A DNA stretch of 64,000 nt from Propionibacteriaceae bacterium (GCA_045806785.1 JBJMIR010000114.1:10913-74912), one strand, 5' to 3'; counted from the first letter of the stretch, positions 52,317-60,824 are shown. Translations and numbers: made by a program. The notes: a model not told the origin generated them from the sequence alone.

Positions 52317-52829
52317 TCAGGTGTGATCTTCGACCAGGGCTGCATATCTCGTCAGGTATAGCGGCCAGCCCCGCTCTCCATCGGCCCCCTCGCTGACCGC
52401 CTCCCAGCCTGGACCGTGTCGCTCGATGTAGCGGTGTTCCAGCTCGACGCGGGTCCGCTGTGCGCTCTCAGCGAGAAACTTGACTTCGACCTCACTTGTC
52501 AGCGCCGGGTCGGTCTCCAGCTGCCACTGCGGGCTGATTCCCCAGCTGAACACCACCAAGTTCGGCGGTTCGTAGACCAAGACCCGGGCCCAATGGCACT
52601 CGCTGCCGTCTATGGCACGGTCGTAGATATGGCCGCCGACCCGCGGCTCGAAGACCGTCTCGGCGATCGGTGCCGCGAGCAGATTGTGCTCCGGCGGCTT
52701 GAAGTCACCAAAGCGCTCGGTGAATACCCGAAAGGCTCGGTCCACCGGGGTGTTCACCATGACCTGATGGCGAACCCCCGTGGACTGGGGCTGGGTGGAC
52801 TGGGGCTGGGTGGACTGGGGCTGGGTCAT
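52317..52829 (-). CDS. SRPBCC (Aha1/START-like) protein with an N-terminal (TQPQS)x3 repeat
   Basis: Contains VNTPVDRAFRVFTERFGDF .. GWEAV.. core. ATGA overlap with the arsR-like stop. Confidence 0.7.
   Translation of the reverse strand: MTQPQSTQPQSTQPQSTGVRHQVMVNTPVDRAFRVFTERFGDFKPPEHNLLAAPIAETVFEPRVGGHIYDRAIDGSECHWARVLVYEPPNLVVFSWGISPQWQLETDPALTSEVEVKFLAESAQRTRVELEHRYIERHGPGWEAVSEGADGERGWPLYLTRYAALVEDHT
52781..52825. repeat. Perfect 15-bp tandem repeat x3 (TGGACTGGGGCTGGG), in frame
   Basis: Copies at 52781-52795, 52796-52810 and 52811-52825. It encodes TQPQS three times at the N-terminus of the SRPBCC protein. Confidence 0.9.
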
Positions 52830-53149
52830 GAACTGTCCTCCGTCGTTTCTTCTGCAATTTCTGCGTAGCCGGCGAGCGCTCGCTGCCAAAAGGTGTCCAG
52901 CTGATCGCGCAGGGCGGCTACCGCAGCTGGGTTGAGCCGATAGATCCGTCTGGTACCGGACTGTCGCTCGGTGACCAGACCGGCGTCCTTCAGTACTTTC
53001 AGGTGTTGTGAGACCGCGGACCGAGTGACCGGCAGACGTTCCGCGATCTGCCCGACCGCCTGAGGCCTCTCGGCCAGAGAGGCAACGATGGTGCGCCGCG
53101 TACCGTCCGCCAATGCGTCCCAGGGATCCATTGATCGGTTAGTGTTCAC
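52826..53149 (-). CDS. ArsR/SmtB family transcriptional regulator
   Basis: Winged HTH VGQIAERLPVTRSAVSQHLKVLKDAGLV. The start is 53149 or 53131 (second Met). Confidence 0.85.
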   Translation of the reverse strand: MNTNRSMDPWDALADGTRRTIVASLAERPQAVGQIAERLPVTRSAVSQHLKVLKDAGLVTERQSGTRRIYRLNPAAVAALRDQLDTFWQRALAGYAEIAEETTEDSS

Positions 53150-53169
53150 TAACGGTTAGTCTGCACTAA
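53139..53169. promoter_or_regulatory. Two adjacent palindromes, TTAGTG-N2-CACTAA and TTAGT-N4-ACTAA (candidate ArsR operators)
   Basis: Located at 53139-53152 and 53156-53169, at and just upstream of the arsR-like start. Confidence 0.5.
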
Positions 53170-53188: not shown

Positions 53189-54352
53189 TCAGCTACGCAA
53201 GGTTTTCAGCCTGCTGATCGCCTCATCGAGCACCTGCTGCTGCTTGCAGAAAGCCCAGCGCACGTACGGCCGACCCGCTTCAATGCGGTCGTAGAACACC
53301 TGATGAGGGATCGCCACGACTCCGCAGCGTGTGGGTAGATCCCGACAGAACTCCACGCTGTCGCTGTAACCCAGCGGCCGCACATCGGTGGTCATGAAGT
53401 ATGTGCCTCGAGGAATCACCGGTTCCAGCCCGATCGACCGCAACCCTTCGGCGAATTGATCACGCCGGTCTTGAAGATCAAGTCGAGCCTTCTCCACCCA
53501 CTCATCGCCCTCGTTGAGAGCGCAAGCAACGGCCGGTTGGAACGGCGCGCCAGAGACATAGCTCAGAAACTGCTTCACCGCGGTGATCTCGTTGATCAAC
53601 TCCGCAGTGCCAAGCGCCCAGCCGATCTTCCAGCCGGTCACCGAAAACGTCTTGCCTGCCGACGAGATACGCACGGTCCGTTCCCGCATTCCGGGGAAAC
53701 TCGCCAAGGGCAGGTGTTCGGCGTTATCGAAAGTCAGATGCTCATACACCTCGTCGCAGATAACCACCACATCGTGCTGCACGGCCAGTTCGGCGATCAA
53801 TGCAAGATCAGCGTGATCCAGCACGACTCCTGTCGGGTTATGCGGAGAGTTGATCAACAGCGCCTTGGTCTTGGGCGTGAACGCGGCTCGGATTTCGGCA
53901 TGGTCGAGCCGGAAGTCCGGTCCGAAGAGTCCCACGCCAACGCGTCGCCCGCCCGCCAGCTCGATCGATGCGGCGTAGGAGTCGTAGAAGGGCTCCAAGG
54001 CGATGACCTCGTCGCCTGGGTTGACAAATGCCAAGATCGACGCGGCTAACGCCTCGGTGGCACCCGTGGTGACCAGGACCTCCGTCTCCGGGTCGAAGCT
54101 CAGGCCGTACGTTCGGCTGCTGTGAGCGGCGATGGCCTGTCGCAGCGGCAGGATGCCGCGGCCTGGCGGGTACTGGTTGACACCACTGGCGATCGCCGTC
54201 CGGGCCTCCTCAAGCATGAAGACCGGGCCGTCGGTGTCTGGAAAGCCTTGACCGAGGTTGATCGACTGAGTGGCCAAGGCCCGTGCTGACATCTCGGCGA
54301 AGATGGTGGTCGCCGCCGAGCGAATCCGATCGGCTTTCCAGACAGACGGCAT
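53189..54352 (-). CDS. PLP-dependent class I/II aminotransferase (YbdL / kynurenine-aminotransferase-like; often annotated DapC in actinobacteria)
   Basis: INLGQGFPDTDGP N-terminal motif and SAGKTFSVTGWKIGW (PLP lysine region). 387 aa. Confidence 0.85.
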   Translation of the reverse strand: MPSVWKADRIRSAATTIFAEMSARALATQSINLGQGFPDTDGPVFMLEEARTAIASGVNQYPPGRGILPLRQAIAAHSSRTYGLSFDPETEVLVTTGATEALAASILAFVNPGDEVIALEPFYDSYAASIELAGGRRVGVGLFGPDFRLDHAEIRAAFTPKTKALLINSPHNPTGVVLDHADLALIAELAVQHDVVVICDEVYEHLTFDNAEHLPLASFPGMRERTVRISSAGKTFSVTGWKIGWALGTAELINEITAVKQFLSYVSGAPFQPAVACALNEGDEWVEKARLDLQDRRDQFAEGLRSIGLEPVIPRGTYFMTTDVRPLGYSDSVEFCRDLPTRCGVVAIPHQVFYDRIEAGRPYVRWAFCKQQQVLDEAISRLKTLRS

Positions 54353-54429
54353 AGGTCGACCCTAGCCAACGGCGGCGTGCATGAACGATCACGCATGACC
54401 TGCCGCAGCCAACCCTAATGCTCGAGCAT

Positions 54430-54520
54430 CAGTGCACTGTGAGAAGAAGTGCGCGCTTAAGTCGCCATTGAAAAATCTATTGACATATTAAGTGCAGGTA
54501 GAAATAATTAAGTGCACTTA
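54430..54520 (+). promoter_or_regulatory. Near-consensus sigma70-like promoter embedded in AAGTGC-type palindromes
   Basis: TTGACA (54480-54485), a 17-nt spacer, then AATAAT (54503-54508). Palindromes CAGTGCACTG (54430-54439) and TAAGTGCACTTA (54509-54520). ATTAAGTGCA occurs twice (54487-54496 and 54507-54516). Confidence 0.55.
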
Positions 54521-54551
54521 GCAGCGGTGGCTGCGGAGGGGAGGTGGGGAC

Positions 54552-54659
54552 ATGATCATTCAAGAACTATTCCGCCTTCTTGGCTTTCTGGTCACTTTGG
54601 TGCTCGTCTGCCTCATGATCGGCGCGATCCTAGGGATCTTGCTCCTCATGAGCTTCTGA
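54552..54659 (+). CDS. Small hydrophobic peptide, 35 aa (MIIQELFRLLGFLVTLVLVCLMIGAILGILLLMSF)
   Basis: Hand-translated. GGAGGGGAGGTGGGGA lies directly upstream of the ATG. One predicted TM helix. It is below the ORF-track cutoff. Confidence 0.45.
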   Translation: MIIQELFRLLGFLVTLVLVCLMIGAILGILLLMSF

Positions 54660-54671
54660 GTTGGAGTCCGG

Positions 54672-54773
54672 GTGAGCGTGACTGCGGCATCGAGCGTGGT
54701 ACTGGCGCTTCCCACAGGTTGCGGTCGCCCGCCGCAATTCGTTAGACAGTGGCGCGCATGGGGCTGTCTATGA
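54672..54773 (+). CDS. Second small ORF, 33 aa (VSVTAASSVVLALPTGCGRPPQFVRQWRAWGCL)
   Basis: GTG lies 5 nt after GGAG and 12 nt after the first small-ORF stop. It has a signal-peptide-like start with an imperfect lipobox (PTGC) and two Cys. Speculative. Confidence 0.25.
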   Translation: MSVTAASSVVLALPTGCGRPPQFVRQWRAWGCL

Positions 54774-54819
54774 GCGCGCTTAGCAAGTAAGCTAGCTGCT
54801 TAAGCGCGCACTTGTGCGC
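54774..54819. promoter_or_regulatory. Nested palindromes upstream of the XRE-type gene
   Basis: GCGCGCTTAGCA (54774-54785) faces TGCTTAAGCGCGC (54797-54809). GCGCAC-TT-GTGCGC is at 54806-54819. CTTAAGCGCGCACT (54799-54812) is the exact reverse complement of 54448-54461. Confidence 0.5.
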
Positions 54820-54852
54820 CCCTGACCCGACGAGCAGACATTGAGGTCCAAA

Positions 54853-55791
54853 ATGAAGAGCGTCACTGATGCCGACTTGGACGATCTAGGGCAGTTGCTC
54901 AAAAAGGCGCGAGAGCAGTCAGGGCTATCTCAGCGCAAGGCCGCTGAAGCTGCGAAAATTAGCCCGACCTACGTGCGGACTCTCGAATCTAGTAGCAATC
55001 CCAACACAAATAAGCCGTCGCGGCCGTCTCCGGAAGTGCTCTTGGCAATGGGCAATGCTTTGAAAGTTGATCCGGAGATTCTTTTCGACATGGCCGGCTA
55101 TGATCCCGAATTAACCAAGCAGGTTGCGCCAACGATCGGTGACTCTGCGCAAAGAAGTATCGACTCCGACTTAAGAAGGATGCGGGACGCGACCAAGAAA
55201 TTAGATCAGCGACACGACTTTATCAAGATGCAATCGGTCGAACGTTTCAGCAAGTTCACGAAGGAATTTCTAGCAATGGCCGACGGGACCTTCCGATGTC
55301 GGGCGGAGGAGGAGCCATACCTCACAAGAGTGGCCTACTGGCAGGCCAAGTCAACAATACGGGCCGTAAGCTATCAGGATGAGCAATGGTGGGAAAGTAA
55401 GCGTGGCCGCGACTATCTTAGGCTTCACGATGAAGTCCGCAAGAAGAACAATATAGAGATCACTCGTATCTTCTTGGTTCCCGAGGATAGGCAGCCGGAG
55501 CTGAAGAAGACATTCGAAAAGCATGTGGAGCTGGGGATATCTACATTTGTTATGTCCCCCCGCGACGTGGGGGTCGAGCTTTGTCGAGACCTTGTGCTCT
55601 TCGACGACGAGCTGCTTCGAGTTGGTGGCTCGCCACGAATTGACGATCTCAAGGCGGCTGAGTTTACTGATAATCGTGCTCGTATCGAACAAGCGCGTGG
55701 AGACTTTGAGGCTCTCCATCGAATTGCGAGCAACACTCCTACCGAAGCACAACACATACTCGACTTGATCGATTCAGGCACGCTGGCCTGA
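54853..55791 (+). CDS. XRE-family HTH protein fused to an unrecognised C-terminal alpha/beta domain (312 aa)
   Basis: HTH at LGQLLKKAREQSGLSQRKAAEAAKISPTYVRTLE. C-terminal strand/helix pattern (TIRAVSY, IEITRIFLV, ISTFVMS, RDLVLFDDELLRV). GAGG lies 6 nt before ATG 54853. Codon use is AT-shifted. Confidence 0.75.
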   Translation: MKSVTDADLDDLGQLLKKAREQSGLSQRKAAEAAKISPTYVRTLESSSNPNTNKPSRPSPEVLLAMGNALKVDPEILFDMAGYDPELTKQVAPTIGDSAQRSIDSDLRRMRDATKKLDQRHDFIKMQSVERFSKFTKEFLAMADGTFRCRAEEEPYLTRVAYWQAKSTIRAVSYQDEQWWESKRGRDYLRLHDEVRKKNNIEITRIFLVPEDRQPELKKTFEKHVELGISTFVMSPRDVGVELCRDLVLFDDELLRVGGSPRIDDLKAAEFTDNRARIEQARGDFEALHRIASNTPTEAQHILDLIDSGTLA

Positions 55792-55968
55792 AGATCGACC
55801 GCCTTCGTTATCACTCCAATCGCACATCGCCGAGTCGAGTGGCTTTCAACACACGAGCTGAGCAAACCCCTTAATGTCAGCCTCGTCGCGTGTGGCGGGG
55901 CAGGCGACTCACAAAGTGACGAGTGGGATGCCTGTTCAGAGCTAGGCAGTGCTTGTGGAGTCGGGGGA

Positions 55969-57087
55969 ATGGACACGTGTGTGATTGCTGCTGGTGCTTC
56001 GAAAGCGTCACAACTCGCGGGTCAACAGGTCGTTGTTGTAGGCGCTGGTGTGATTGGTCTGTCTACAGCTATCGAACTGCGGCTCGCGGGTGCGAACGTA
56101 ACGGTCTTCACATCACCGAACTACCCGATGGTCTCGCCAATGGCGTGCGCCCTATTCCTTCCGTGGATGGGACCGGACAGCGCTGTCCTCTGGAGTGGCC
56201 CTCTGGAGCGGGCAGTCGTGAATAGCTGGCACCGCTATGAATCGTTGCTGAATGAGTTCGGCACAACTGCCGGGATACGGTCCGCCACGAACCACGAGTA
56301 CTTAGGAGCTGGGGATCCCGATCCTCCTGACAGGCTTCGCTCTATTCTCACACCGTCCACCATATCACCCTGCAATGTGCAATTTGTCGGAAACTACTAT
56401 GACCGCGTTTGGAAATTCGAAACAATTGTAATTGACATGAGTTGCTATATGTCCTGGCTTGGCATGAAAGCATTGTCTCTGGGCATCGCTATCAAGAAGC
56501 AACATCTGGAATCCCTCAGCGATACTTTCGATCACGAGACGTATGTGATTGTCAATTGCTCCGGACTTGGTGCGAGGACGCTAGCTCCCGACAAGGCCGT
56601 GAGGCCGGTAAGGGGTCAAGTGCTTTTCTTTAAGCCAATAGATCAAGATGTCCTAATCAACTTCGTGGGGATTGGCATAGGCGAGTATTGCCTGATTCCG
56701 CGCATCACTGATGTGGGACTGGGAAGTTTGTTTGAGCAGGAAATCGATTGTGATGAGATTTGGCCCGGACGCTCAGAGCGTAATGAGAGAAGACTTTGGG
56801 CCGCACTCGACGCATTGGTTGAGTTATCTGGTGTGGATCGATCAGCGCTTGAGTTCTCCGGCCGAACGTCAGTTGGTCTTCGTCCTATTCGTGAAGGCGG
56901 TTACAGGCTAGAGGCGCTGTGGCATGGCGACCGTTTGGTCGTACACAATTATGGACATGGTGGCTTGGGAGTAACTGTGGCCTGGGGCTGCGCGAATCAG
57001 GTAGTTGATTTGATACGTAGAGAACTTGCGGGAACAGCGGCAGGAAATCGGGGCCATCGGCGTCCGGAAAGCCTCGACCGAGGTTGA
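55969..57087 (+). CDS. D-amino-acid oxidase (DAO) family FAD-dependent oxidoreductase
   Basis: Rossmann VVVVGAGVIGLSTA. VVHNYGHGGLGVTVAWGCA fits the classical DAO signature [LIVM](2)-H-[NHA]-Y-G-x-[GSA](2)-x-G-x5-G-x-A. The last 12 or so codons read antisense through the aminotransferase remnant. Confidence 0.8.
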   Translation: MDTCVIAAGASKASQLAGQQVVVVGAGVIGLSTAIELRLAGANVTVFTSPNYPMVSPMACALFLPWMGPDSAVLWSGPLERAVVNSWHRYESLLNEFGTTAGIRSATNHEYLGAGDPDPPDRLRSILTPSTISPCNVQFVGNYYDRVWKFETIVIDMSCYMSWLGMKALSLGIAIKKQHLESLSDTFDHETYVIVNCSGLGARTLAPDKAVRPVRGQVLFFKPIDQDVLINFVGIGIGEYCLIPRITDVGLGSLFEQEIDCDEIWPGRSERNERRLWAALDALVELSGVDRSALEFSGRTSVGLRPIREGGYRLEALWHGDRLVVHNYGHGGLGVTVAWGCANQVVDLIRRELAGTAAGNRGHRRPESLDRG

Positions 57088-57125
57088 TCGCCGGCCTGGC
57101 CAGGGCCCATGCGGACAACCCTAGT
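57051..57125 (-). pseudogene. Decayed 5' fragment of a second aminotransferase gene copy
   Basis: The minus strand reads ..LSAWALARPAINLGRGFPDADGP, against ..MSARALATQSINLGQGFPDTDGP in the intact gene. The 15-nt core GACCGAGGTTGATCG is shared (57076-57090 and 54250-54264). The fragment ends abruptly at the islet border. Confidence 0.65.
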
Positions 57126-57146
57126 TCGTCCGCATGCCTCACTGGC

Positions 57147-57566
57147 TCAACTGGCGTCCGCAAGGAAGGAGAGGCGTACCTCGCGGTTCGCGTTATCGAC
57201 GTTGAGATCGACCATGGCAACCGACTGCCACGTACCCAAGGCCATTTCGCCGCGAACGACCGGAATCGTGGCGTACGGCGCGATGAGCGCTGGCATCACA
57301 TGTGACCGGCCATGGCCGCGGGAGCCGTGGGCGTGTCGCCAGCGGTTGTCGGCGGGCAACAGGTCCCGCAGTACAGCCAGCAGGTCGTCGTCGCTGGCTG
57401 AGCCCAGTTCGATTAGCGCGATACCTGCGGTGGCGTGTGGGACGAACACGTGCAGCAGGCCGTCGCCGCCGGCCGCCGCATCGCGCAGAAAGGCCGCGCA
57501 CTGCGGGGTGAGATCGTGGACTGCTTCACTGCGTCCCGTGGTCACCTCGATCACCGTGCTCTTCAT
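57147..57566 (-). CDS. YjbQ/UPF0047 family protein (secondary thiamine-phosphate synthase-like)
   Basis: Contains LLHVFVPHATAGIALIE .. HGRSHVMPAL .. LGTWQSV, the conserved YjbQ pattern. 139 aa. Confidence 0.8.
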   Translation of the reverse strand: MKSTVIEVTTGRSEAVHDLTPQCAAFLRDAAAGGDGLLHVFVPHATAGIALIELGSASDDDLLAVLRDLLPADNRWRHAHGSRGHGRSHVMPALIAPYATIPVVRGEMALGTWQSVAMVDLNVDNANREVRLSFLADAS

Positions 57567-59942: not shown

Positions 59943-60824
59943 ATGGGTACCGCCATCACCGTGATCATCATCATCTTGGTGATCGTCGTCATCCTCGCGC
60001 TCATCGGCATGAGCTCGTACAACGGCTTCGTCAAATCGCGAAACTTGATTCAGGAATCCTGGCGGCAGATCGATGTCGAACTGAACCGCCGTTATGAGCT
60101 GATCCCGAACTTGGTCGAGACGGTTCGGGCGTACGCCGCGCACGAGCGCAACACCCTTGAGGACATCACCAGGCTGCGCAGCCAGGCTCAGCAGTTGTCC
60201 CAGTCTGAGGGCTCACTGCCCAGCCAGCAGCGCGCCGATGTCGAGACAGCGCTCTCCGGAGCGGTCCGGAACTTGATCGTCAGCGTCGAGGCGTACCCCG
60301 ACCTCAAGAGCAACCAGAACTTCCTTGAGCTGCAAAGGCAGCTCGCCGAGACCGAGGATCGGATCGCCGCAGGTCGCCGGTTCTACAACGCCAACGTCCG
60401 GGTCTACAACACCAAGGTGGAGTCGGTGCCGACGAACATCATCGCCAACATGTTCAAGTTCGAAAAGGCCACGTACTTCCAGGTTGACGAACCCGCCGTA
60501 CGCCAAGCGCCAGATGTCAGCTTCGGCGAAATCGCCTACCGTGGCGATCCCGAGCAGCAGCGGCAACTGCCGCCGCAGCAGTCGGCCCCCCAGCAATCGA
60601 CACCGCCGGTGCAGTTCGACAAGCAGAGTGACGACGCGCTCCCCAATCCGCAGGAGTATCAGCAGCCGCCCCAGGCTTACCAGCCACCACAGCAGGGCCA
60701 ATATCAGCCACCTCAGCAGGGTGATTATCAGGCACCGCAGCAGCAGGGCGGCGGTTACCAGGCGCCGCAGCAGGGCGGTTATCTTCCGCCTGAAACTGGG
60801 CAACAGAACCCGAATCAGCGGTAG
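59943..60824 (+). CDS. LemA family protein with a Gln/Pro-rich C-terminal tail
   Basis: N-terminal TM helix. YNGFVKSRNLIQESWRQIDVELNRRYELIPNLV is the LemA core. AAGGAG lies before the ATG. Confidence 0.85.
   Translation: MGTAITVIIIILVIVVILALIGMSSYNGFVKSRNLIQESWRQIDVELNRRYELIPNLVETVRAYAAHERNTLEDITRLRSQAQQLSQSEGSLPSQQRADVETALSGAVRNLIVSVEAYPDLKSNQNFLELQRQLAETEDRIAAGRRFYNANVRVYNTKVESVPTNIIANMFKFEKATYFQVDEPAVRQAPDVSFGEIAYRGDPEQQRQLPPQQSAPQQSTPPVQFDKQSDDALPNPQEYQQPPQAYQPPQQGQYQPPQQGDYQAPQQQGGGYQAPQQGGYLPPETGQQNPNQR

Follow-up and report, generated by a model that had tools for sequence, protein, structure and literature searches.

The regulators closest in design to the one described here are the archaeal TrmB and TrmBL2 proteins (PDB 5bpi, 5bpd and 2f5t), which combine an N-terminal DNA-binding domain and a long helix with a non-catalytic C-terminal domain of the phospholipase D (PLD) fold. 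In TrmB, the C-terminal PLD-fold domain binds the effector, a sugar. The closest described enzymes are the D-amino-acid oxidases (DAAOs), whose physiological role in bacteria has been described as largely unknown (PMC4699246). We analyzed a stretch of 64,000 nucleotides (nt) from a Propionibacteriaceae bacterium (GCA_045806785.1 JBJMIR010000114.1:10913-74912), here called the window, and give all islet coordinates in the numbering of the whole stretch. It contains a foreign-looking islet of about 2.8 kb encoding a short membrane peptide, a regulator with a helix-turn-helix (HTH) domain and a DAAO-family flavoenzyme. Judged by its gene content, this trio is a cut-down version of a four-component cluster that is conserved and apparently undescribed; of the cluster's enzyme set, only the DAAO has been kept.

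The islet lies between an aminotransferase gene (53189..54352, minus strand) and a YjbQ-family gene (57147..57566, minus strand), after which comes a gene for an aldehyde dehydrogenase resembling succinate-semialdehyde dehydrogenase. The aminotransferase is of class I and matches NCBIfam PRK07777 (7.6e-181). All islet genes are co-directional: an open reading frame (ORF) of 35 amino acids (aa) at 54552-54659, an XRE-type HTH protein at 54841/54853-55791 and a PF01266 flavoenzyme at 55969-57087. An initial annotation, made from the sequence without database searches, had listed these co-directional parts, and all of them are present. It had also taken peptide, HTH protein and oxidase for a three-part module. 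As a natural unit that module did not hold up, for the wider unit consists of a protein with the regulator's C-terminal domain (C-domain), a protein that we call X, a D-2-hydroxyacid dehydrogenase and a DAAO, and the peptide belongs to one clade only.

Relatives of the C-domain, carried either behind an HTH or on a two-helix membrane anchor, adjoin genes for X, the dehydrogenase and the DAAO. We surveyed about 22 distinct contexts with readable downstream DNA; L numbers below denote related loci on other contigs. X is encoded in 15 of these contexts, the DAAO in 13 and the dehydrogenase in 11. The co-occurrence of the HTH fusion with a DAAO-family gene in other genomes, which the initial annotation had proposed as a check, is therefore found in 13 of about 22 contexts and in two phyla. 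The order regulator-X-dehydrogenase-DAAO is seen in distant relatives with 35-45% identity (L008, L016, L026/27 and L029), which include two metagenome-assembled genomes of Solirubrobacteraceae. L030 encodes a regulator (41% identity) and a DAAO alone, without X. The association of C-domain and enzymes spans Actinomycetota-type contigs, Solirubrobacteraceae among them, and Bacteroidota contigs, that is, at least two phyla.

A second class of C-domain proteins (class 2) has two transmembrane helices in place of the HTH found in class 1 (alignment A4). The class-2 gene is located between the dehydrogenase gene and a DAAO-X fusion gene in Winogradskyella (L009), Mucilaginibacter (L010) and L018. 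In L031, its neighbors are the dehydrogenase gene on one side and, on the other, a DAAO gene truncated by the end of the contig. Class-2 genes overlap or abut their neighbors in the two loci whose gene ends were inspected (L009 and L018). X is fused to the N-terminus of the DAAO in L012 and to its C-terminus in L009, L010 and L018, and tight gene overlaps occur in L009, L016, L026 and L029. The overlapping genes and the X-DAAO fusions suggest that the products form a complex or serve one pathway. Other neighbors in these contigs include a DUF2130 protein and a nuclease resembling Old/GajA (PADLOC Old, 1.7e-33), both beside the cluster of L016 (6417-9059). Genes for a tyrosine integrase, a replication-O-like protein and a sigma-54 activator whose N-terminal domain is unassigned are found in L009 (5301-6734 and 10434-12341), and one for a DDE transposase in L010 (3290-4813).

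Protein X matched no Pfam family, and neither X nor the C-domain had a sequence relative in the PDB. X is weakly similar to the NCBIfam SCO2522 family (NF040566), at 1e-5 for the X domain of L018 and 0.025 for the X of L005 (25 against a cut-off of 200 bits). It has a strongly conserved set of polar residues (E41, H44, D86, D87, K88, D113, E118, C157, D160, W164 and R168) and an IE[FLVY][GA]H motif that recalls HIGH. The structural model of X is of modest confidence (predicted local distance difference test, pLDDT, 60.6). Its best Foldseek matches are to the catalytic cores of class-I aminoacyl-tRNA synthetases (aaRSs) and are weak (9.5e-4, with template-modeling (TM) scores of 0.32-0.35).

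The regulator gene (54853..55791, plus strand) codes for 312 aa from an ATG. The mechanical ORF start is a TTG at 54841, and we prefer the ATG at 54853 because of the N-termini of the homologues and a GAGG Shine-Dalgarno sequence. An XRE-type HTH (about 54883-55077) is followed by a long linker helix (about 55144-55245) and a predicted PLD-like, DUF6879-like C-domain (about 55246-55740), all on the plus strand. The initial annotation had seen an HTH protein with an extra domain, and Pfam agrees: HTH_31 (1.8e-10) and HTH_3 span residues 15-79 only, leaving about 215 further residues. XRE-type families (HTH_31, HTH_3, HTH_25 and HTH_19) over residues 15-82 gave the only DNA-binding matches. The AlphaFold2 model (pLDDT 79.8) predicts the HTH, a long helix at residues 102-135 and then an alpha/beta domain. 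With the whole chain, the best Foldseek match is the archaeal TrmBL2 (1e-5). The C-domain matched Nuc (1byr, target-normalized TM score 0.68), NucT (6ehi), PLD3 and the sugar-binding domain of TrmB (2f5t, 1.2e-3). The single Pfam family to which the C-domain shows any match is DUF6879 (PF21806). It is matched weakly by nine of 15 relatives, with a best value of 6.9e-6, and is among the precomputed domains of protein P0003.

The HxKx4D motif is not conserved in 41 C-domain members, in which the corresponding strand has the pattern [R/C/L]-x-D-x4-D. Of the HKD motif, 40 of the 41 keep the trailing Asp, and the catalytic His and Lys are replaced. As a result, PLD-type catalysis is not expected, and we rejected the C-domain as a catalytic PLD nuclease. 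What the initial annotation had labeled an unknown domain can thus be assigned, on the predicted structure, as a degenerate and dead PLD fold that is weakly DUF6879-like, fused to an XRE HTH in a TrmB-like arrangement.

The regulator family is rare, with 18 matches in 5.8 billion clustered proteins, all of them metagenomic. For the C-domain, 586 representatives were found at E<=1e-3 among 1.84 billion. Only class-1 (HTH-bearing) sequences served as queries in the metagenome scan for relatives. The best regulator matches have 90% identity in the searched protein collection and 43% in the GTDB species representatives (Solirubrobacteraceae). The regulator diverges faster (57-90% aa identity) than the genes that flank it (82-91%). 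In two full clusters, the regulator homologues have N-terminal extensions of about 380 aa (L016, 1406-3472) and about 190 aa (L026, 5431-6909) before the HTH. Neither extension matched Pfam.

Ahead of the peptide gene, the initial annotation had described a near-consensus promoter overlapped by palindromes, a description that is borne out. The sigma-70-type promoter (54480..54508, plus strand; TTGACA-17-AATAAT) agrees with the consensus at 11 of 12 positions and is conserved in L032. It is the only sigma-70-like match within 54300-57250. The half-site TAAGTGC (54489-54495) lies inside its spacer. Upstream of the -35 is an operator-like sequence, O1 (AAGTGCGCGCTTAAG, 54447..54461), which includes the half-site GCGCTTA (54453-54459), is conserved in L032 and has a perfect 15-nt inverted partner at 54799-54813. 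The second, O2 (TAAGTGCACTTA, 54509..54520), is a perfect 12-bp palindrome with half-sites at 54509 and 54514. It abuts the -10 and spans the expected start of transcription. O2 is identical in L032, and the peptide genes of L001 and L014 have the same type of motif upstream. The further palindrome cluster reported before the HTH gene is O3 (54773..54815), in which the inverted arms GAGCGCGCTTAGC and GCTTAAGCGCGCAC surround a AGCTAGCT centre and contain the half-sites 54776-54782 and 54801-54807. The regulator genes of L001, L003, L012, L014 and L032 have equivalent inverted arms ahead of them; those of L012 have both changed in concert, from GCGCGCTTAG to GTGCACTTAG / CTAAGTGCAC.

The 7-mer TAAGYGC/GCRCTTA occurs six times in the whole window, and all six copies fall within 355 bp (54453-54807): one upstream of the -35, one in the spacer, two in O2 and two in the arms of O3. 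The 10-mer TTAAGYGCRC has three matches against 0.34 expected, a count reached in none of 100 shuffles. The TAAGYGC palindromes look as operators of the adjacent HTH protein should, and they are its putative binding sites. Just upstream of O3, a non-coding segment (54728-54772) with the short inverted repeat AGACAG...CTGTCT is conserved in the window, L014 (249-293) and L032. Between regulator and oxidase is a spacer of 177 nt (55792..55968, plus strand), whose first 77 nt are conserved in L032. It contains no operator half-site, predicted promoter or predicted terminator, and the oxidase gene would be co-transcribed with the regulator gene. A riboswitch or small RNA in the islet was rejected, as Rfam had no match at E<=1 over 53900-57400.

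The 35-aa product (MIIQELFRLLGFLVTLVLVCLMIGAILGILLLMSF; 54552..54659, plus strand) is a single-helix membrane peptide, as the initial annotation had proposed. The ORF has a GGAGG-type Shine-Dalgarno sequence (54535-54546), GGAGGGGAGG, before its ATG. The peptide has a mean Kyte-Doolittle hydropathy of 3.0 across 19 residues, with one strongly hydrophobic helix. Its amino-acid sequence is conserved in at least eight related loci, in which genes for its homologues lie a short distance before the regulator gene (L001/2, L003/4, L005/6, L012, L014, L021, L023 and L032). The homologues share the core LGFLV(K/T)L.L..L..G.ILG, each with a GGAGG-type ribosome-binding site. Over a 23-codon block from six loci, pairwise differences at codon positions 1, 2 and 3 number 133, 59 and 213, a coding signature that places the peptide under purifying selection as a protein. 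By this signature the 35-aa ORF is a real gene. It matched neither Pfam nor PADLOC. The peptide is confined to one clade, and throughout that close clade a small membrane-peptide ORF accompanies the regulator, as found on checking the co-occurrence proposed for it. A second tiny ORF (54672-54773, GTG start, 33 codons) does exist as the initial annotation reported, but it is not conserved. L001, L003, L005 and L012 do not preserve it as an ORF, and a 14-nt deletion disrupts it in L032, the closest relative. We therefore rejected it as a gene, which it probably is not.

The third gene (55969..57087, plus strand) codes for a flavoenzyme of 372 aa with a full-length PF01266 domain (2e-23) over residues 21-348. 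All 17 of its PDB sequence matches are D-amino-acid or D-aspartate oxidases (3e-21 to 1e-12), in agreement with the earlier description as a flavin oxidase of the DAAO family. Its identity to the solved enzymes is low, the best full-length phmmer match having an E value of 3e-21 and 79 bits. NCBIfam matches to ThiO and DadA are limited to the Rossmann start. The motifs VVVVGAGVIG (the N-terminal dinucleotide-binding GxGxxG), GLRPIR and the C-terminal HNYGHGG are all present and align with those of the solved relatives; the latter two align to the DAAO chain of 8hy5 and are kept in the cluster homologues. GLRPIR corresponds to the context of the carboxylate-binding Arg (GFRPVR around R283 of the human enzyme). 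The region of the human Y224/Y228 reads GIGEYCLIP, with an offset of one residue; the Tyr is in register in the homologues of L026 and L029. Because of this region, the substrate preference of the oxidase is not readable. With the DAAO portion of the L012 X-DAAO fusion, the oxidase shares 53% identity. On its sequence, assignment as a genuine member of the family of DAAOs and D-aspartate oxidases (DDOs) is sound, and the activity is putative.

Close relatives keep the site and change the cargo. In contigs with flanks that are about 80% identical, the peptide-regulator pair is found at the same aminotransferase/aldehyde dehydrogenase site and the genes downstream differ. No cargo follows the regulator in L002, L014/15 and L021. 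X is the cargo in L005/6 and L023, and a second aminotransferase with a D-2-hydroxyacid dehydrogenase in L003/4. L012, a relative from the close clade whose flanks lie beyond its contig, encodes the X-DAAO fusion. An intact DAAO is present in the window, and L020 keeps the start region of a DAAO up to the contig end. In two loci the DAAO has decayed. L032 is the nearest relative, with a regulator that is 90% identical. Its oxidase pseudogene (1580-1867) has lost 254 nt, equivalent to 55869-56122 of the window, with in-frame stop codons after the deletion; its peptide and regulator are intact. The decayed copy in L013 (1533-2052) is 5'-truncated and frameshifted and stands beside an intact regulator, and the contig starts too near the regulator to show the peptide gene. 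Gene-free gaps separate regulator and cargo in L003 (2271-3417, 1.1 kb) and L023 (1755-2338, 0.6 kb), with no detectable remnant of X, DAAO or dehydrogenase in either. A remnant of X or of the dehydrogenase inside the islet was likewise rejected, as tblastn over 54201-57300 found none. The initial annotation had put forward a D-amino-acid catabolic switch and an abortive-infection-style cassette as readings, both of them hypothetical. Taken with the cluster survey, the comparative data favor a logic of a regulator plus enzyme cargo.

Two properties of the islet had been missed in the initial annotation. The first is its composition. The G+C content of the islet is 0.54 against 0.62-0.63 in both flanks, a deficit of about nine points. 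In each of the close loci the module has 0.52-0.56 against 0.62-0.67 in the flanks, and it is richer in A+T than the host in all examined loci except L008 and L016. The second is a 78-nt imperfect direct repeat (family D1, 81% identity), the longest direct repeat in the region, which brackets the islet. The left copy (54214..54291) lies within the intact aminotransferase gene on the minus strand, at about codons 21-46, as located by the repeat search and by alignment with the 5' ends of orthologous aminotransferase genes. The right copy (57040..57117, minus strand), at the right-hand edge of the islet, is a stand-alone fragment of an aminotransferase orthologue, again at about codons 21-46 (tblastn 2.6e-7), with homology to aminotransferase orthologues limited to about 80 nt. 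The oxidase gene ends inside it, with 16 codons in the overlap, and synteny with L002 restarts at 57156. No recombinase ORF or domain was found between the two copies by ORF and Pfam scans. Integrase attachment (att) sites were rejected, given the lack of a recombinase, the 81% identity and the origin of the right copy as an internal gene fragment. Since the imperfect repeat is a gene fragment and no recombinase is encoded, a recombination scar is more likely from the sequence than an att site.

Other features were noted on the left and right of the islet. A tandem 17-nt repeat, CGGTTAGTGTTCACTAA / CGGTTAGTCTGCACTAA (53136-53169), lies at the start of an ArsR-family gene (52826..53149, minus strand) and is probably the operator of the ArsR protein. 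This gene is paired with one for an AHSA1/SRPBCC-domain protein, and the AHSA1-like ORF (52317-52889, minus strand) starts with a threefold QPQST repeat. On the other side, a 293-aa ORF (59943-60824, plus strand) encodes an N-terminal membrane helix and a long, low-complexity C-terminal tail rich in Gln and Pro. By eye, it may be LemA-like.

We prefer, at even odds, to read the islet as an accessory oxidoreductase cassette that regulates itself, was acquired horizontally and is reduced from the four-component cluster. This reading builds on what the data show: the anatomy of the islet, a conserved peptide with conserved operators, the assigned folds, gene co-occurrence, foreign composition and the hypervariable locus. 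The regulator would be a one-component sensor-repressor of TrmB-like design, with an XRE HTH, a dimerizing long helix and, for binding a small molecule, a dead PLD-fold domain. As a dimer or larger oligomer, it would occupy the TAAGYGC/GCRCTTA palindromes at the peptide promoter and before its own gene. Until the ligand appears, such occupancy would keep the peptide and the regulator down, and with them, through read-through, the enzyme cargo downstream. In the complete cluster, that cargo would be X, possibly with an ATP- or amino-acid-binding HUP/aaRS-like domain, the D-2-hydroxyacid dehydrogenase and the DAAO-family oxidase, with a chemistry that may center on 2-oxo, 2-hydroxy and D-amino acids. 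The oxidase of the window would act on a D-amino-acid-like substrate and yield H2O2, ammonia and a 2-oxo acid. The peptide may be a clade-specific, co-regulated membrane partner. The repression, the ligand sensing, the identity of the substrate and the co-transcription of the oxidase are what we infer in this scheme. In this reading, the horizontally acquired islet has been inserted at a recombination-prone site of the chromosome and reshuffled there.

Several points weigh against the cassette. The context survey and the ORF lists showed no transporter in any cluster, and the absence of a transporter is unusual for a catabolic operon. The class-2 C-domain is membrane-anchored without a DNA-binding domain, and its gene overlaps or abuts the enzyme genes, which argues for more than control of transcription. 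The enzyme set is never complete within the clade of the window. The peptide-regulator pair is kept where the DAAO has decayed (L032, and the regulator of L013) or where cargo is absent (L002, L014/15 and L021), which suggests that the pair functions independently of the enzymes. Together with the tight gene overlaps and the X-DAAO fusions, these observations speak against a plain catabolic operon. The regulator of the window did not match DUF6879 (PF21806) even at E<=10.

One alternative, which we consider unlikely, is a conflict system for abortive infection, defense or addiction. Its sensor domain would detect an infection or stress cue, and derepression would free a depolarizing peptide toxin and, where present, an H2O2-making oxidase. 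The peptide and regulator would then be a selfish, stably retained core, an idea that we also regard as doubtful. In keeping with this, the near-consensus promoter of the peptide is tightly operated, and the regulator, with the peptide where visible, remains intact despite lost or decayed cargo in L002, L014/15, L021, L032 and L013. The module has a G+C content below that of its host at all examined loci but L008 and L016, and the locus is hypervariable, with cargo turning over and the regulator diverging faster than the flanks. The distribution is patchy and rare across phyla (586 representatives in 1.84 billion). Among the neighbors are the Old/GajA-like nuclease of L016, the tyrosine integrase and replication-O-like protein of L009 and the DDE transposase of L010, and the HTH itself resembles CapH-type regulators.

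The system-specific proteins, however, found nothing in PADLOC beyond generic HTH. In PADLOC-DB only the HTH models CapH, HTH_VI and C-protein were matched, with nothing for the peptide, the C-domain, X or the dehydrogenase; the DAAO proteins weakly match an unrelated flavin adenine dinucleotide (FAD) desaturase model (C3a186) in the Rossmann region only. A known defense or toxin-antitoxin system was rejected for want of a specific PADLOC match, and the view of the initial annotation that no named toxin-antitoxin, defense or catabolic system fits the islet stands. IMG/VR viral contigs contained no relatives and PLSDB plasmids only HTH-level matches, on which we rejected a phage or plasmid origin. 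No antisense or antitoxin feature was found, Rfam had no match, and toxicity of the peptide is putative. Distant class-1 loci have no peptide, which therefore is not the ancestral effector, and the enzymes belong to ordinary metabolic families.

It is also possible, though again improbable, that the islet is the remnant of a pathway modifying a small molecule or macromolecule. X, as an aaRS-like protein activating an amino or hydroxy acid, would make or modify a product together with the dehydrogenase, the DAAO and the PLD-fold protein. That the pathway of the window is broken, with its oxidase a functionless or re-purposed leftover heading to decay, we think just as questionable. The X-DAAO fusions in both orientations and the tight overlaps in L009, L016, L026 and L029 fit such a pathway. 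So do the conserved polar residues and HIGH-like IE[FLVY][GA]H motif of X, its best fold matches to class-I aaRS catalytic cores and its weak similarity to the SCO2522 family (1e-5). The window lacks X, the dehydrogenase and any remnant of them, and DAAO pseudogenes are present in L032 and L013. Yet the X model is modest (pLDDT 60.6) and its Foldseek matches weak (9.5e-4, TM 0.32-0.35), and the oxidase ORF of the window is intact with all its motifs. In L030, regulator and DAAO are paired without X at 41% regulator identity, so the reduced form may be functional by itself.

A further view is that the window has a trimmed copy of a hitherto unrecognized, horizontally mobile, multi-component system, made up of a dead-PLD sensor protein with an HTH or a membrane anchor, an aaRS-like X, a D-2-hydroxyacid dehydrogenase and a DAAO-family oxidase. 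It would be a device for conflict or defense, or a producer of a bioactive amino-acid derivative, and not a catabolic operon. The peptide of the clade would then be a toxic effector or a membrane tether of the regulator. We hold this, too, to be a minority prospect. That the three genes are mere neighbors in a variable region, without forming a functional unit, is very improbable: the downstream cargo does vary or is absent among close relatives, and the 177-nt spacer before the oxidase gene has no operator, but the C-domain is found with a DAAO in 13 of about 22 contexts, in two phyla, with fusions and conserved order, and the peptide and operators are conserved with the regulator.

With these data, one clade of DAAOs gains a reproducible genetic context across phyla, made up of a putative sensor domain, X (sometimes fused) and a D-2-hydroxyacid dehydrogenase, in which the role of such oxidases becomes testable. 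The data also define a bacterial family of XRE-HTH regulators built like archaeal TrmB, with a putative operator motif, and pair that family with a conserved gene for a 35-aa membrane peptide that survives the decay of the enzymes. Either outcome would give a function to several domains that currently have none. What appears to be new is an accessory cassette controlled by a sensor-repressor and assembled from uncharacterized parts, of which the window would have a degenerate copy.

Set beside known systems, the islet shares layout alone with the RNPP/Rgg-SHP systems, where an XRE-HTH regulator of about 300 aa is likewise encoded beside a short hydrophobic peptide. The C-domain of the window is predicted to have an alpha/beta PLD fold instead of an array of tetratricopeptide repeats (TPRs), and what is conserved of the peptide is an entire transmembrane helix, not a C-terminal pheromone released by processing. 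Genes for export or processing are lacking. Peptide signaling of the RNPP/Rgg type was rejected on the fold of the regulator (PLD, no TPR). Like an integrase-mobilized genomic island, the islet has flanking direct repeats and a deviant composition; unlike one, it has no island-encoded site-specific recombinase. X, which is weakly similar in full clusters to the uncharacterized SCO2522 family (NF040566), is absent from the window. The searched literature had nothing on DUF6879, on SCO2522, on TrmB with PLD and HTH or on the cluster.

The oxidase shares PF01266, the dinucleotide-binding motif, GLRPIR and HNYGHGG with DAAO and DDO (EC 1.4.3.3 and 1.4.3.1). To our knowledge, a context of regulator, X and dehydrogenase has not been described for known DAAOs. 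With the PLD superfamily (Nuc, NucT and PLD3) the C-domain shares the alpha/beta fold and lacks HxK(x)4D. Its distant relation to DUF6879 (PF21806), an uncharacterized domain, runs through nine of 15 relatives, the window protein excepted. For 15 family members, Regulator_TrmB (PF11495) gave no match at E<=10 and PF01978 was likewise unmatched. The predicted likeness to TrmB and TrmBL2 is in the order of the parts, DNA-binding domain, long helix and non-catalytic PLD-fold domain. Unlike the archaeal proteins, the regulator of the window has a bacterial host and an XRE/Cro-type HTH instead of the TrmB winged helix (PF01978), and elsewhere its C-domain is carried on a two-helix membrane anchor without a DNA-binding domain.

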